In this document: piece by piece, positions 6,200 through 50,167 of the stretch
How positions within the stretch are numbered: position 1 is the first letter of the stretch
How the letters are laid out: the number at the start of each line of letters is the position of its first letter
Source: Mobula birostris
Lineage: Eukaryota
Assembly (NCBI RefSeq): GCF_030028105.1
Contig: NC_092377.1
Span: 40,192,450-40,256,449, forward strand
Reading direction: 5' to 3'
DNA length: 64,000 bases
Notes under the pieces: generated by a model
Databases searched by the model: none
What the model was told of the DNA's origin: nothing
What the model saw: only the letters and a program-made list of their open reading frames with translations
Made by a program: the position numbers and the translations under genes

Positions 6200-6282
6200 C
6201 AGTGGAGGGACACAGCAGGTCAGGCAACTTCTGTGGAGTAAAATAGACAGTCAATATTTCAAACTGAGACCCTTCATCTGGT
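6200..6282 (-). mobile_element. Old Penelope-like pLTR end fragment with decayed hammerhead
   Basis: Reverse complement reads ccagatgaagggtctcagtttgaaatattgactg...ctgacctgctg, similar to the pLTR at 7081-7160. Confidence 0.55.
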
Positions 6283-6475
6283 CACCAGTTCAGATTATTT
6301 CCCTTTATTTAGAAATCTATCAATTCTTGTTTAGAATGATGACATTTCTCCTCATTTCAATTCTAAATAACCTAATCTTCATTTTCAGTTTCTGACATCC
6401 TAGTTTGAGACTCTGTGACCAGGGAACATATCCTCACTGCACTGACCCAGTCAAATTCAGTGAGAATTTTGTATA

Positions 6476-7213
6476 GACTAGGAAGAGTTACAGTCAGCTG
6501 GGGTGATATACTGCATCTGGTGCTCCCGATGCAGCCTTCTATATATTGGCGAGACCCGACGCAGACTGGGAGATCGTTTCACTGAACACCTACGCTCTGT
6601 CCGCCAGAGAAAGCAGGATCTCCCAGTGGCCACGCATTTTAATTCCACATCCCATTCCCATTCTGACATGTCTATCCACGGCCTCCTCTACTGTCAAGAT
6701 GAAGCCACACTCAGGTTGGAGGAACAACACCTTATATTCCATCTGGGTAGCCTCCAACCTGATGGCATGAACATTGACTTCTCAAACTTCTGCTATTGCC
6801 CCACCTCCCCCTCGTACCCCATCCGTTATTTATCTATATACACACATTCTTTTTCTCTCCCTCCTTTTTCTCCCTCTGTCCCTCTCACTATACCCCTTGC
6901 CCATCCTCTGGGCTCCCCCCTCCCCCTTTCTTCCTCCCTAGGCCTCCTGTCCCATGATCCTCATATCCCTTTTGCCAATCAACTGTCCAGCTTTTAGCTC
7001 CATCCCTCCCTCTCCTGTCTTCTCCCATCATTTTGGATCTCCCCTCTCCCTCTCAAATCTCTTACTAGCTCTTCTTTCAGTTAGTCCTGACGAAGGGTCT
7101 CGGCCCGAAACGTCGACTGTACCTCTTCCTAGAGATGCTGCCTGGCCTGCTGCGCTCACCAGCAACTTTTATGCGTTGCTTGAAATTCCAGCAACTGCAG
7201 ATTTCCTCGTGTT
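6476..7213 (+). mobile_element. Penelope-like element, 5'-truncated (GIY-YIG C-terminus + pLTR), 15-bp TSD
   Basis: Peptide IYCIWCSRCSLLYIGETRRRLGDRFTEH...EEQHLIFHLGSLQPDGMN; TSD tgagaattttgtata at 6461-6475 and 7214-7228; closely similar to 18620-19316. Confidence 0.93.
7082..7119 (+). ncRNA. Minimal type I hammerhead ribozyme (PLE pLTR); predicted cleavage after C7114
   Basis: tagtc-CTGACGA-a-gggt(ctcg)gccc-GAAA-c-GTC-gactg: helix I tagtc/gactg, helix II gggt/gccc, helix III reduced to palindromic ACGT. Confidence 0.85.
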
Positions 7214-7253
7214 TGAGAATTTTGTATATTTCATTTTGGTTCTCTCTCGTTCT

Positions 7254-7460
7254 CATAAACATAGAAAACATAGAAAACCTACAGCACAATACAGGCCCTT
7301 TGGCCTACAATGCTGTGCCAAACATGTACTTACTTTAAACATTACCTAGGGTTACCCATAGCCCTCTATTTTTCTAAGCTCCATGTACCCATCTAGGAGT
7401 CTCTTAAAAGACCCTATTATCTACCTGCATCACCATCACCGGCAGCCCATTCCATGCACT
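7254..7460 (-). mobile_element. CR1-type LINE 3' end fragment
   Basis: (catagaaaa)2 tail followed by acagcacaatacaggccctttggcc; same 3' UTR type as 44050 and 45613. Confidence 0.75.
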
Positions 7461-7761
7461 CCTCTGAACCTACTTCCAAAATCCCAAACTGGGCCAAGTC
7501 TACTCAATTTTTCCTGCTTTCCTGGAACCAGTCAGGTAAATTGTCACTGCATTCCCTCAATAACACTGTAGATAGGGAGATCAAAATTATATACAACACT
7601 GTAGATGCATTCTTAACAAGGTCTTATGTAATTGTTGTAGGATATCTTTACTCCTGTGTTCAAATGCTCTTTGAGTTTTCCTAACTGTCTGCTGCACCTG
7701 CATCACACATCAAAGTTGCTGGTGAACGCAGCAGGCCAGGCAGCATCTGTAGGAAGAGGTG

Positions 7762-7799
7762 CAGTCGACGTTTCAGACCGAGACCCTTCATCAGGACTA
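7762..7799 (-). ncRNA. Minimal hammerhead ribozyme, left arm of palindrome
   Basis: Reverse complement tagtc-CTGATGA-agggtctcggtct-GAAA-c-GTC-gactg; core intact, helix II weakened to G-U pairs. Confidence 0.65.
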
Positions 7800-7803
7800 A
7801 CGT

Positions 7804-7841
7804 TAGTCCTGACGAAGGGTCTCGGCCTGAAACGTCGACTG
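7804..7841 (+). ncRNA. Minimal hammerhead ribozyme, right arm of palindrome; predicted cleavage after C7836
   Basis: tagtc-CTGACGA-agggtctcggcct-GAAA-c-GTC-gactg. Confidence 0.75.
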
Positions 7842-8199
7842 CACCTCTTCCTACAGATGCTGCCTGGCCTGCTGTGTTCACCAGCAACTTTGATGTGTGT
7901 TTCTTGAATTTCCAGCATCTGGAGAATTCCTGTTGTTTTGCTGCACCTGCATGTTAGCTTCAAATGTGTACAAGGACATCCAAATCATTTTTACATCAGT
8001 TTTCACTGTGGAAGGTGCCAACACCATGCCTGAAATATACCAGAGTCAAGGGGCAGTCACCTAGTGCTACCTCAGATTTGTATTTTAATCAGTGGCAAAG
8101 GAAATGTGCAGATCCTAGATAATTGGTCTACTTGTCCACGATACATAAAGGAACTGCCCAGAAAAGCTAATAATATAGGATATGCAGTGCGATAGTTAC

Positions 8200-8780
8200 A
8201 ATCCTGATATAGCGGCTGGATGGTGGGTGCGCGTGAGTCTTGGGCTGGACATTCTGCTTATGTAAAGAAGGTGAAACACGCTCCATAGCCTCTCCTTTCA
8301 AGGTATAGTGATTACCGCAGGACGACTGCTTGGCTTGTCATGCAGGAGGTCACATGCATGTGGCCTCTCCTACACTACTGTGCCCATAGCAACACCTTCA
8401 CGTGGTGTTCCTATTCTTACGGAGTTTGCTATGTTATGATGTGGCCGAGTGTCCAGCAGTGTAACTGGGCAGGCAGGCTGGGCTCATCAGCCTTGGTTGG
8501 CAGCTAGCCTAGGAGAAGGACAGCTTCGATTCCAAACCCAGGCAGGTGGGACTCATTAGCCTTGCCAGCCAGTCTCCGATACTCAACCTACATCCTTGTG
8601 ATCGCCACAGTCATCACAGCTCACTGTGCCATTGTGGAATGTCCCCCAGCCTAAAGAGTGGAATTGGTCTGCGTGCACCAGTCCTCACTATAAACCTACG
8701 CAGTACAGGTGGGAAGAAAAGTCCTACAGCGATGGAGTTCCCTCCTGATCTTCACAAGTGAAGAATCACCCATCGTCATC
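8200..8780 (+). mobile_element. RTE-like LINE 5' UTR-derived remnant
   Basis: Motif gcctaggagaaggacagcttcgattccaaacc resembles RTE-clade 5' UTRs; GC-richer than flanks; no ORF support. Confidence 0.4.
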
Positions 8781-16941: not shown

Positions 16942-18921
16942 CCCTCCTCTTCTTCATGGACACCCCGCTCTGGTCTTCTGCCTGCTCTGGATCTCTTTAT
17001 CGCTAACTGCCGACGGGACATCAATCGTCTCGACTTCACCGCACCTTGTCCCCATTCCAACCTCACTCCTTCGGAACGCTCTGCTCTCCACTCCCTCCGC
17101 ACTAATCCTAACCTTATTATTAAACCCGCCAATAAGGGGGGTGCTGTTGTAGTCTGGCGTACTGACCTCTACCTTGCCGAGGCACAGCGACAACTCGCAA
17201 ATACCTCCTCTTATTTACCCCTCGATCGTGACCCCACTAAGGAGCACCAGGCCATTGCCTCCCACACCATCACTGACTTTATCCACTCAGGGGATCTCCC
17301 ATCCACTGCTACCAACCTTGTAGTTCCCACACCTCGCACTTCCCGTTTCTACCTCCTACCCAAGATCCACAAACCTGCCTGTCCTGGCCGACCTATTGTC
17401 TCAGCTTGCTCCTGCCCCACCGAACTCATTTCTGCATACCTTGACACGGTTTTATCCCCCCTTGTTCAATTCCTTCCAACCTATGTTCCTGACACTTCTC
17501 ACGCTCTGAAACTTCTCGATGATTTTAAGTTCCCCGGCCCCCACTGCTTTATTTTCACCATGGATGTCCAGTCCCTATATACTTCCATTCCCCATCAGGA
17601 AGGTCTCAAAGCTCTACGCTTCTTTTTGGATTCCAGACCTAATCAGTTCCCCTCTACCACCACTCTGCTCTGTCTAGCAGAATTAGTCCGTACTCTTAAT
17701 AATTTCTCCCTTGGCTCCTCCCGCTTCCTCCAAACTAAAGGTGTAGCTATGGGCACCTGTATGGGTCCTAGCTATGCCTGCCTTTTTGTTGGCTTTGTGG
17801 AACAATCTATGTTCCGTGCCTATTCTGGTATCTGTCCCCCACTTTACCTTCGCTACATCGACGACTGCATTGGCGCTGCTTCCTGCATGCATGCAGAACT
17901 CGTTGACTTTATTAACTTCGCCTCCAACTTTCACCCTGCCCTCAAGTTTACCTGGTCCATTTCCGACACCTCCCTCCCCTTTCTAGATCTTTCTGTTTCT
18001 GTCTCTGGAGACAGCTTATCCACTGATGTCTACTATAAGCCTACTGACTCTCACAGCTATCTGGACTATTCCTCTTCTCACCCTGTCTCTTGCAAAAACG
18101 CCATCCCCTTCTCGCAATTCCTCCGTCTCCACCGCATCTGCTCTCAGGATGAGGCTTTTCATTCTAGGACAAGGGAGATGTCTTCCTTTTTTAAAGAAAG
18201 GGGCTTCCCTTCCTCCACTATCAACTCTGCTCTTAAACACATCTCCCCCATTTCACGTACATCTGCTCTCACTCCATCCTCCCGCCACCCCACTAGGAAT
18301 AGGGTTCCCCTGGTCCTCACCTACCACCCCACCAGCCTCCAGGTCCAACATATTATTCTCCGTAACTTCCGCCACCTCCAACGGGATCCCACCACTAAGC
18401 ACATCTTTCCCTCCCCCCCCCCCCCCGCATTCCGCAGGGATCGCTCCCTACGCGACTCCCTTGTCCATTCGTCCCCCCCATCCCTCCCCACTGATCTCCC
18501 TCCTGGCACTTATCCGTGTAAGCGGAACAAGTGCTACACGTGCCCTTACACTTCCTCCCTTACCACCATTCAGGGCCCCAAACAGTCCTTCCAGGTGAGG
18601 CAACACTTCACCTGTGAGTCGACTGGGGTGATATACTGCTTCCGGTGCTCCCGATGTGGCCTTTTATATATTGGCAAGACCCGACGCAGACTGGGAGACC
18701 GCTTTGCTGAACATCTATGCTCTGTCCGCCAGAGAAAGCAGGATCTCCCAGTGGCCACACATTTTAATTCCACATCCCATTCCCATTCTGACATGTCTAT
18801 CCACGGCCTCCTCTACTGTAAAGATGAAGCCACACTCAGGTTGGAGGAACAACACCTTATACTCCGTCTGGGTAGCCTCCAACCTGATGGCATGAACATC
18901 GACTTCTCTAACTTCCGCTAA
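16942..18921 (+). CDS. PLE reverse transcriptase + GIY-YIG endonuclease; 659 codons open, native start lost (first ATG at 17560)
   Basis: Frame read codon by codon with no stop from 16942: IIKPANKGGAVVVW, FYLLPKIHK, GRPIVS, DVQSLYTSIP, QTKGVAMG, RYIDD, LPFLD, YKPTDS..YL...S.HP, Cys linker CKRNKCYTC, VIY..RCSRCGLLYIGKTRR. Confidence 0.93.
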   Translation, partial: PSSSSWTPRSGLLPALDLFIANCRRDINRLDFTAPCPHSNLTPSERSALHSLRTNPNLIIKPANKGGAVVVWRTDLYLAEAQRQLANTSSYLPLDRDPTKEHQAIASHTITDFIHSGDLPSTATNLVVPTPRTSRFYLLPKIHKPACPGRPIVSACSCPTELISAYLDTVLSPLVQFLPTYVPDTSHALKLLDDFKFPGPHCFIFTMDVQSLYTSIPHQEGLKALRFFLDSRPNQFPSTTTLLCLAELVRTLNNFSLGSSRFLQTKGVAMGTCMGPSYACLFVGFVEQSMFRAYSGICPPLYLRYIDDCIGAASCMHAELVDFINFASNFHPALKFTWSISDTSLPFLDLSVSVSGDSLSTDVYYKPTDSHSYLDYSSSHPVSCKNAIPFSQFLRLHRICSQDEAFHSRTREMSSFFKERGFPSSTINSALKHISPISRTSALTPSSRHPTRNRVPLVLTYHPTSLQVQHIILRNFRHLQRDPTTKHIFPSPPPPAFRRDRSLRDSLVHSSPPSLPTDLPPGTYPCKRNKCYTCPYTSSLTTIQGPKQSFQVRQHFTCESTGVIYCFRCSRCGLLYIGKTRRRLGDRFAEHLCSVRQRKQDLPVATHFNSTSHSHSDMSIHGLLYCKDEATLRLEEQHLILRLGSLQPDGMNIDFSNFR

Positions 18922-19218
18922 TGCCCCACTTCCCCCTCGTACCCCATCTGTTACTTACTTTTATACACACATTCTTTCTCTCACTCTCCTTTTTCCTCTC
19001 TCTGTCCCTCTGAATATACCCCTTGCCCATCCTCTGGGTCCCCCGCCCCCCCCCGTCTTTCTTCCCGGACCTCCTGTCCCATGATCCTCTCGTATCCCCT
19101 TTTGCCAATCACCTGTCCAGCTCTTGGCTCCATCCCTCCCCCTCCTGTCTTCTCCTATCATTTTGGATCTCCCCCTCCCCCTCCCACTTTCAAATCCCTT
19201 ACTCACTCTTCCTTCAGT

Positions 19219-19256
19219 TAGTCCTGACGAAGGGTCTCGGCCTGAAACGTCGACTG
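19219..19256 (+). ncRNA. Minimal hammerhead ribozyme; predicted cleavage after C19251
   Basis: tagtc-CTGACGA-agggtctcggcct-GAAA-c-GTC-gactg, identical to 7804-7841. Confidence 0.8.
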
Positions 19257-20142
19257 CACCTCTTCCTACCGATGCTGCCTGGCCTGCTGCGTTCACCAGC
19301 AACTTTTATGTGTGTTGCTTAATATCATTGGCATATGTTGTGAAATCTGTTGTTGTGTAGCAGCAGTACAGTAATAAAACTGTAAATTACAGTAAAAAAA
19401 ATATAAGTAGAGCAAAAAGAGAAAAAAAATGTAGTGAGGTAGTTTTCATGGGTTCAATGTCCATTCAGAAATCTGATGCAGAGGGGAAGATGCTATTCCT
19501 GAATCGTGTGTGTGCCTTCAGGATCCTGTACCTCCTCACCGATGATAGCAATAAGAGAGCATGTCCTGGGTGATGGGGGTCATTAATGATGGATGCCACC
19601 TTTTTGAATCATTGCTCCTTGAAGATGTCCCGGATGCTGAGGAGGCTAGTGCCCAGGATGGTGCTGACTGAGTTCACAACGTTCCACAGCTTTTTCCGAT
19701 CCTGTGCAGAGAACCACCCCCCACCGCGTACCAGACAGTGATGCATCCAGTTAGAATACTGCAGAAATTTGTGAGTGTCTTTGGTGGCTTAACAAATCTC
19801 AAGTTCCTAATGAAATACAGTCACTGTCATGCCGACTTTGTAACTGTATTGCTATGTTGGGCCCAGGATAGATTCTCAAAGATGTTGACATCCAGGTACT
19901 TGAAATTGCTCACCCTTTCCACTTCTGAACCCACTGGTGTGTGGTCCCATCTTACGCAGTACAATCAATTCTACTGCACCAATATGATTCAAAACCAAAC
20001 AGGGTGCAAGACGTGTCAGATTTAATAATGATTTACGAGTAGATCTAGTTAACAATCCAATGGCGCATAAGCATTTATGTAATTATGATCATAATTTGAG
20101 CACGTTCAAGAGAAAATCTAAGTCACTGCTGAGCGTTTTTAA

Positions 20143-27316: not shown

Positions 27317-27982
27317 ATGAAATCCAAAGCAACAAGCACAAATTGCAGGAGGAACTCAGCAGGCCAGGCGGCATCTTTGGAAAAGAGTAAACAATCGATG
27401 TTGCAGGCCAAGACCCTTCCCCAGGACTGGAAAGGAAAGGGGAAAGAAATCAGAATAAGAAGGTGGGGGGAGGGGAGGATGAAGTATGAGGTGGCAGGTG
27501 ACAGGTGAAACCAGGAGAGGAAGAAGGGTTGAAGTAAAGAACTGGGAAGTTGATAGAAGAGGATAGAAGATCATGGAAGAAAGAGAAGGGGGAGGAGCAC
27601 CAGAGGGAAGAGATGGGCGGGTAAGAAGAGGAGTTATGAGAGGGAAACAAGAACGGGGAGTGGTGAAGGAGAGGAGGGACAGCAATTACCAGAAGTTCAA
27701 GAAATCAATGCTCGTGTCATCAGGTTGGAGGCTACCCAAATGGAACATAAGGCGTTGCTCCTCCATCCTGAGAGTGGTCTCACCTTCTCTTTTGTCTTCT
27801 CCCATCAGATCCCCCCTTCTCCAGCCCTGTATCTCTTTCACCAATCAACTTCCCAGCTCTTTACTTCATGCTCTCTCCCTCTCCCGGTTTCACCTACCAC
27901 CTGCCACCTTGTACTTCATCCTCCCCTCCCCCACTTTCTTATTCTGACTTCTTTCCCCTTTCCTTTCCCATCCTGATGAAAG
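27317..27982. mobile_element. Penelope-like element with inverted pLTR arrangement (minus 27317-27783, plus 27784-27982)
   Basis: Left part is antisense pLTR + endonuclease C-terminus; right part is sense pLTR ending at cctgatgaaag; the two share about 170 bp in inverted orientation. Confidence 0.8.
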
Positions 27983-28546: not shown

Positions 28547-29128
28547 TTCAAGATTCAAGATCCAACATTCAAGATTGTTCAATGTCGTTTCCAATACACA
28601 AGAATAAAGGAGAACAAAATAATTGTTACTCCGGATCTGATGCAGCTCAAAAGAAAGCAAAACAATAAATATAAATGCATAAGATTAGCTTTTATACGTA
28701 GATTGATTATATGTACCTAAAGTGACATTGGGTACAGGAGTGTCTGTATATAAGATGACTCTGGCAGGAAATGATAAAGTAGTGGTGATGGAGTGGGTTA
28801 GTGGCTGGAGTGTTGATCAGCCTTACTGCTTGGGGAAAGTACTGTAACTGTTTTCAGTCTTAAACATGAGAAAGTGTGCAGATTCTGGAAATCCAAAGTA
28901 ACACACAAAATACTGGAGGAACTCAACAGGCCAGGAAGCATCCATGGAAATGAATAAAGAGTCAGCATTTTGGGCCAAGACTCTTCTTGAGGATCCTTCT
29001 TCTTTTTCAGCCTGGTGGTCCTGGATGCTACGTAGCCTTCACCCTGAAGAGACTGGGACAAACAGAGCAGGGTGGATGGAGTCCTTCGTGACATTGCTGG
29101 CCTTTTTCTGGCACCTTTCTGCATATAT
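28547..29128 (-). mobile_element. Rex-like LINE 3' end hosting a PLE fragment; cut off by the Gypsy LTR
   Basis: ttcaagattcaaga tail; gatcagccttactgcttggggaaag...cctggtggtcctgg. Confidence 0.65.
28861..29003 (-). mobile_element. PLE pLTR end (decayed hammerhead + tail), probable 10-bp TSD
   Basis: ttttcagtct (28851-28860) / ttttcagcct (29004-29013); aaatactggaggaactcaacaggccagg. Confidence 0.75.
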
Positions 29129-49345: not shown

Positions 49346-49354
49346 CTCCCTCAT

Positions 49355-49900
49355 TCTGATATGTCTATCCACAGCCTCCTCTACTGTCAAGATGAAGCCA
49401 CACTCAGGTTGGAGGAACAACATCTTATATTCCGTCTGGGTAGCCGCCAACCTGATGGCATGAACATCGACTTCTCTAACTTCCGCTAATGCCCCACCTC
49501 CCCTTCGTACTCCACCTGTTATTTATTTATCTTTTATTATTATTAATTTTTTTCTCTCTCTCTCTCTCCTTTTTCTCCCTCTGCCCCTCTCACTATACTC
49601 CTTGCCCATCCTCTGGGCTTCCCCCCTCCCCCTTTCTTTCTCCCTAGGCCTCCCATCCGTCCCATAATCCTCTGATATCCCTTTTGCCAAACAACTTTCC
49701 AACTCTTAGCTCCATCCCTTCCCCCTCCTATCTTCTCCCATCATTTCGGATCTCCCCCTCCCCCTCCCACTTTCAAATCTCTTACTAGCTCTTCCTTCAG
49801 TTAATGCTGACGAAGGGTCTCGGCCCGAAACGTTAACTGTACCTCTTCCTATAGATGCTGCCTGGCCTGCTGTGTTCACCAGCAATTTTTATGTGTGTTG
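49355..49900 (+). mobile_element. Penelope-like 3' fragment with decayed hammerhead, 9-bp TSD
   Basis: TSD ctccctcat at 49346-49354 and 49901-49909; colinear with 18787-19316; hammerhead at 49801-49839 keeps CTGACGA/GAAA but helix I is broken and GTC has become GTT. Confidence 0.9.
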
Positions 49901-50167
49901 CTCCCTCATCTGTCTGCTAATTACAGCCTTCAAAAAATAAATTTTGTCAAAAATGATTTTCGTAGAGTCACAAAGTCATACGGCACTTTTCACCAAGTTT
50001 ATGGCTATCTGCCCTAATGGGTAGTTTGGCATCATTTCTTTTCATAATGTCACCAGTAAACCTTACCACAGAGTGATATCCACATTAAAATTAGTCACTA
50101 CTGGCATCAAAGATGAACCATGCTTCAAGCAAACAGGTTTATCTATCAGAATATAGATTCCCCATTG

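Follow-up and report, generated by a model that had tools for sequence, protein, structure and literature searches.

In L1 twin priming, the second target strand primes by microhomology and an inverted part comes to lie inside one TSD, the two arms covering different parts of one RNA. Insertions with inverted pLTRs are known from endonuclease-bearing Penelope-like elements (PLEs) as well, namely from Pen2a, Pen2 and Pen3a of Adineta vaga (PMC3846280) and from Penelope of D. virilis (PMC2377424), with a scheme in PMC8557442, and self-priming has been proposed to explain them (PMC3846280). In the available text of PMC8557442 and PMC11167929, the origin of tandem and inverted pLTRs and of the one-sided tail is called unresolved. 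In vitro, a PLE protein, a predicted dimer, places a nick in each target strand and extends both, begins reverse transcription at two internal positions that bound the tail and has no need for ribozyme cleavage (PMC11167929). Pairs of hammerhead motifs on opposite strands, 100-700 bp apart, have been described in Schistosoma, and the portions of that paper at hand offer neither junction mapping nor a mechanism for them (PMC4209133).

The palindrome described here shares with the published inverted-pLTR insertions, as far as their accessible descriptions go, a head-to-head inverted 5'-truncated copy, a tail on one end, a TSD around the whole unit and palindromes at the junction, an architecture that is already published (PMC3846280, PMC8557442) and whose inverted pLTRs the first-pass annotation had given as established for PLEs. 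Unlike those, the locus has no ORF and both of its arms are 140 nt or shorter, such units number in the thousands, and their junctions peak at the base of hammerhead helix I.

Structure and parentage of the locus

The window, by which we mean the whole 64,000-nucleotide stretch of DNA that was analysed, belongs to an assembly of 4.0 Gb. The window contains two 98-bp arms, 7704-7801 and 7802-7899, each the reverse complement of the other but for three mismatches (7728, 7777 and 7790), all of them transitions and two attributable to CpG decay, and these arms meet with 0 nt of spacer; our arm comparison agrees with the geometry first annotated. We number the element from the first right-arm base, 7802 (+1), which is the first G of the helix I 5' strand; on this scale the Watson-Crick core of helix I lies at +4 to +7, the predicted cleavage after +35 and the end of the tail near +137. 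The tail-less left arm (7704-7801, minus strand) is the PLE pLTR end from +1 to +98 and stops at the short priming site of the family. The tailed right arm (7802-7938, plus strand) runs from +1 to +137, the same end that precedes the ORF start in intact copies, and only this arm carries a PLE 'tail' in the sense of PMC3846280 and PMC11167929 (7904-7938, plus strand, about +103 to +137). The head-to-head junction (+1/+1, 7796-7807) is centred between 7801 and 7802.

The insertion as a whole measures 235 bp (7704-7938) and is flanked by a 14-bp TSD whose left (7690-7703) and right (7939-7952) copies match on the plus strand; no third copy of this 14-mer occurs in the window. In the contigs of organisms C (X9) and D (X10), 7689 is followed directly by 7939 with a single TSD copy, the empty site that the first-pass annotation had proposed to look for and one that bears out its claim of a single event. 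Short-read contigs of organisms A (X1) and B (X5) reach both outer ends from unique flank (7432-7726 and about 7909-8390), and the centre at 7801/7802 is spanned by none of the listed contigs. The locus is one real insertion of an endonuclease-bearing PLE end.

Both arms possess the features of a minimal type I hammerhead, i.e. core boxes, helices I and II and a palindromic minimal helix III, which were identified by motif alone, and self-cleavage is putative. In the left arm (7759-7801, minus strand) the core is intact, stem II has an extra G.U pair and cleavage is predicted between 7767 and 7766 from features given in PMC4209133. The right-arm motif (7802-7844, plus strand) comprises the helix I 5' strand (7802-7808, Watson-Crick core 7805-7808), the catalytic core (7809-7815), stem II (7817-7828), a GAAA (7829-7832), the predicted cleavage after 7836 and the helix I 3' strand (7837-7844); helix I is paired in the computed fold, which as a whole is no better than the folds of shuffles. 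The closing pair of stem II is G.U at the locus and in 84 of 102 copies, and an Rfam scan of the window returned only two chance matches and no hammerhead. Folded as RNA, the palindrome span reaches -212 kcal/mol (z = -26.8), a value matched by none of 200 shuffles. A transcript through it would hold one sense ribozyme buried in this hairpin, so what was inserted does not amount to a ribozyme dimer.

Long copies of the family that matches the arms encode an RT followed by a GIY-YIG nuclease in a unit of about 3.5 kb. The near full-length copy L234 gave RVT_1 with E 5e-5 (below the Pfam cut-off) and GIY-YIG with E 4e-5 (above the cut-off), and a second long copy, L202, supports the same ORF. 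With its RT and C-terminal GIY-YIG domain the parent is an endonuclease-bearing PLE; a PLE origin had already been assigned from the letters of the window. The linker of the ORF contains a three-cysteine cluster, a candidate sign of membership in the Neptune clade. Copies that reach the ORF start are laid out as 3'UTR, hammerhead, tail and then an ATG about 35 nt on; a pLTR end leads into the ORF start at at least 237 loci, and the layout holds in most of the 30 loci that were read. The pLTR ahead of the ORF stems from a partial tandem, as is characteristic of PLEs, and the exact 30-mer of its end occurs 58,644 times in the genome.

Three ordinary 5'-truncated copies of the same family lie in the window (about 6460-7214, 18617-19320 and 49352-49902) and match the palindrome arms at 88-96%. 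Of these, the copy at about 6460-7214 is tailed and has what looks like a 14-bp TSD, and the remaining two stop at short ends. The left arm had been said to end near these short ends, which needs a correction in position, the arm reaching +98 and the copies +104 (19320) and +103 (49902). On the minus strand, related hammerhead-bearing PLE families are represented by older copies that have diverged (74-78%), at 27319-27428, 28862-28993 and 6210-6281. Elsewhere, internally deleted copies (L272, L274, L276, L288, L290, L291, L293 and L300) jump from a pLTR end plus about 110-220 nt of ORF start to -53 to -305 of a second pLTR, with differing breakpoints; they are short head-to-tail derivatives that resemble retrozyme precursors.

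Head-to-head pairs across the genome and the formation of their arms

As a single locus the palindrome is ordinary for its family, and its value lies in the population evidence on mechanism. A two-anchor spacer count, which requires intact anchors and includes some related families, yielded about 11,800 short head-to-head pairs genome-wide. Spacers of 10-39, 40-69, 70-99 and 100-129 nt account for 614, 2883, 5924 and 2380 pairs, respectively (108 nt at the locus), with 1280 and 890 pairs in the next two bins for the nearer anchor. These counts peak and then fall, whereas independent uniform truncation would give a rise with spacer length.

An unbiased sample was drawn from the loci of the first 100 matches of the 30-mer minus the last, i.e. 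93 insertions from the first 5.2 Mb of one contig. Head-to-head pairs make up 39 of the 93 (42%, an upper estimate because pairs are sampled via two anchors). All 39 combine exactly one tail with an inverted 5'-truncated copy and a TSD, another PLE trait, and in 23 of them both arms are short (start at -20 or later). Single insertions end at the tail in 26 cases and at the short site in 28 (28/54). Among 77 short pairs (loci partly overlapping), tallied from end lists with a short end taken as at most 111, 76 have one tail and none has two. The sole junction seen with tails on both arms, L299, has a sense arm that continues into the ORF and is a full-length-type insertion, not a stump.

In 56 pairs the outer ends fall at about +134 to +140 for the tail and at +98 to +102 for the short end, and TSD length has its mode at 14-15 bp. 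The mean overlap of TSD and element is 1.3 nt for tail ends and 1.9 nt for short ends, where chance predicts 0.33; maximal TSD extension biases this estimate upwards. Overlaps of at least 3 nt are found at 12/56 tail ends and 16/56 short ends against 1.4% by chance. The two arms of a pair rarely disagree at subfamily sites (3/63 and 5/73, compared with about 45% in random pairs and a background of 3.5%), so they derive from one RNA or from two RNAs of one source copy. Five of the 39 head-to-head pairs have arms that barely overlap, the tailed one starting at +83 to +100, beside the second priming site.

The 235-bp insertion probably arose by priming from both nicks on RNA of the same source, run-off at the RNA 5' end and head-to-head joining. 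One nicked target strand would prime the RT at the tail end and the other about 35 nt earlier, on RNA from one source copy that might be either a single molecule with strand displacement or two molecules from one locus. Priming internal to the 5' pLTR (internal initiation) might yield the cDNAs of 140 nt or less; both would likely run off close to where the RNA begins, at the hammerhead base, and then be joined head to head, the centre perhaps by microhomology-type end joining. Priming from both nicks is in itself likely, and at two fixed sites it is the favoured account, covering every arm pattern seen; we prefer it to fold-back because of the microhomology at both ends, the same-haplotype arms and the five barely overlapping pairs. 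Against it count the fully overlapping arms, which require strand displacement or a second RNA, and the position of the locus junction at +1/+1, outside the main peak of 5' ends. Priming from both nicks was among the options of the first-pass annotation, and this part of it agrees with the microhomology and the fixed sites; the ribozyme dimer on two RNAs that went with it fares worse (see below).

Fold-back or self-priming, in which a cDNA, or else an antisense RNA (PMC3846280), would fold onto itself and be copied into the mirror arm, had been listed as well and is unlikely. It would account for arms that are concordant at subfamily sites, for the perfect zero-spacer centres (5 of 79 other pairs), for short snap-back-like inserts at many centres and for the correlated arm lengths (odds ratio 21, p = 4e-4). 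However, in 28 of 77 pairs it is the tail-less arm that extends further 5' (local-alignment ends being approximate), the arms of L281 and L292 are without any overlap and cannot be copies of each other, and the short ends sit at a fixed site, with microhomology, that is used by singles too. As to a snap-back route to the exact centre, a C precedes the +1 start in three of only four cases.

Many centres contain short templated or repeated inserts copied from an arm (e.g. L018, L020, L029 and L104). We take these to be reminiscent of polymerase-theta end joining. Deletions of the hammerhead core in one arm, at short repeated words (L003, L004 and L001), possibly reflect instability of the palindrome after insertion.

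The helix I edge, shared junctions and weaker alternatives

The 5' ends of 103 arms lie beyond -22 in 51 cases, in -21 to +2 in 7, at +3 to +6 in 21, at +7 to +24 in 19 and further downstream in 4, with one each at +35 and +38 and none at +36. The pile-up at +3 to +6 (21/103 vs 7 over 24 upstream positions) has a p of about 1e-12. None of these unbiased arms starts at 0 to +2, where the locus itself joins (+1/+1), and none ends on the 3' side of helix I. The helix I edge that had been read from the locus is therefore a genuine hotspot, centred on +4 and not on +1, and the proposed histogram of inversion points does peak at helix I. No cDNA end among the 103 arms falls at the predicted cleavage site, so the edge is not set by cleavage, although this count is no measure of catalysis. 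Because the ends pile up at the base of helix I (+4) and none falls at the cleavage site, the pattern points to run-off at an RNA 5' end. This end might be a start site or a processed end, and run-off at the RNA start would explain both the sharp upstream edge and the trimming tail downstream.

A cap-G test looked at the base before +4 in 1,709 matches, of which the first 100 (a count by eye) had G in 29, A in 25 and C in 46; 26 true ends had G in 9, A in 7 and C in 10. A splice-acceptor origin of the edge gained no support: none of 30 loci showed a conserved first exon upstream of +2/+6, the TSD there lying next to the arm or a few bases from it, and the branch-point-like motif varies between subfamilies. 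An intron in the tail linking an upstream ATG to the ORF was dropped given the true tail-to-ORF sequence. Three contigs aligned to a pLTR-ORF junction displayed neither a start nor a clear splice joint. Full-length-type copies (30 ORF-start loci) have no pile-up at +4; about a third extend upstream of it, which means that longer templates also exist, and most others stop downstream.

The ribozyme itself would set the junction if a pair of RNAs held as a hammerhead dimer templated the arms and if helix I, as a nuclease block or RT release point, fixed the edge. The sharp +3/+4 edge coincides with the Watson-Crick base of helix I, minimal hammerheads have been proposed to act as dimers (PMC4209133), and a slight excess of discordance at +53 (5/73) allows two templates in some cases. 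We nevertheless consider this explanation quite unlikely, given that ends are absent at +36 and on the 3' side of the helix, where the RT would stall. Position +4 is also a pyrimidine-purine start-site-like step near an initiator-like motif and an AG splice-acceptor-like motif. Further, the intron of D. virilis Penelope ends at helix I (PMC4209133), with transcription starting within the pLTR, 46 nt upstream of this intron (PMC2377424), and catalytic mutants still insert in vitro (PMC11167929). The dimer that had been added to priming from both nicks is not supported, given concordant arms, the lack of ends at the cleavage site and a single sense ribozyme per transcript.

The 20-mer centre of the locus recurs identically at 23 assembly loci (control 0). 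All 23 differ in TSD (9-17 bp), and each joins a tailed arm to a short one that ends anywhere from +48 to +110; their haplotypes at +41/+53 are TG in 10, CG in 6, CC in 5 and other in 2, with the arms within a locus agreeing at subfamily sites in 22/23 and 21/22 cases. A search for this junction had been proposed on the understanding that many loci with different TSDs would mean a mobile family; the loci exist, but their several haplotypes do not allow that conclusion. A non-autonomous, ambisense mini-element family moving as a unit would fit the exact centre shared among different TSDs and the junctions common to two insertions in three pairs of longer insertions, and is still very unlikely, because haplotypes are concordant within and not between loci, outer ends vary, the 23 loci sit among about 11,800 heterogeneous junctions and a genome-wide count of one shared long junction gave no more than two occurrences. 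A MITE-like family with one palindromic founder and fixed ends was rejected on the same variation of haplotypes and ends. An assembly or library artefact (fold-back chimera) is exceedingly improbable even though no listed contig spans the centre at the locus, since the arms differ by CpG-type decay, the outer junctions occur in short-read contigs of two organisms and the empty site in two others, and thousands of TSD-flanked equivalents exist in the genome.

The three pairs of longer neighbouring insertions (L174/L179, L161/L168 and L175/L186) lie 156-390 kb apart and have identical or near-identical junctions, with their own TSDs, unrelated flanks and, in two of the three pairs, the tail on opposite arms. 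The pair that was counted, L174/L179 (G000 C1, 3.94 and 4.10 Mb), has a junction present exactly twice in the genome, on which ground re-mobilised long palindromic families were rejected for this junction. Shared junctions may have arisen when a broken palindrome centre was converted from a neighbouring copy, or when a single event produced two insertions; the variants that the copies share fit conversion and a common event alike.

A more far-reaching reading, which we put forward tentatively and regard as doubtful, is an obligate two-primer integration of PLEs, in which a dimer primes at the tail end and the short site, helix I acts as a non-cleaving 5' boundary of the template, and the fragile centres are copied between neighbouring insertions, as suggested by the twin junction 156 kb apart. 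If so, integration would by default yield palindromic stumps, and single copies would be what is left of these after trimming.

Comparison with known systems

A literature search with thin coverage of subscription journals returned no mapping of PLE inversion junctions to helix I and no twin priming for PLEs. What is new here is genome-scale evidence on the PLE mechanism, together with the oddity of junctions shared between neighbours. The more than ten thousand fossil products in this genome offer testable rules for PLE integration: each pair has exactly one tail, priming uses two fixed zones, both outer ends show microhomology, the arms come from the same source, and a sharp 5' edge lies at helix I, not at the cleavage site. 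Moreover, the element has scattered thousands of short, almost perfect palindromes through the genome, and these probably give rise to dsRNA and fragile DNA.

The hammerheads are like the minimal type I motifs of PLE pLTRs, as described in the accessible text of PMC4209133, in their core boxes, the unpaired base before stem II, the short helix I and the palindromic minimal helix III, and differ in the G.U closing pair of stem II at the locus and in most copies. Non-LTR retrozymes are likewise non-coding, hammerhead-bearing and PLE-derived (bioRxiv 10.64898/2026.07.22.740005). These, however, are described there as head-to-tail tandems with two same-strand ribozymes, whereas the locus is a single head-to-head unit that is not self-propagating, and we do not assign it to them.

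The head-to-head pairs differ from L1 twin priming in that 34 of 39 have overlapping arms and the second priming site is fixed; the remaining 5/39 look L1-like, and at the locus itself the arms overlap fully. Another close likeness is to target-primed reverse transcription by PAc (Poseidon, Anolis) in vitro, where both strands are nicked and extended from two internal RT starts that bound the tail, where products shorten when the template 5' end is cut back and where cleavage is not required (PMC11167929). The available text of that study does not describe head-to-head products, and the PAc ORF starts inside the hammerhead (PMC11167929), compared with a first ATG about 35 nt past the tail here. 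The rules derived from the pairs tie this published two-start-site, both-strand biochemistry to real insertions, and they argue against self-priming: double priming fits our data better than the self-priming route put forward in PMC3846280.
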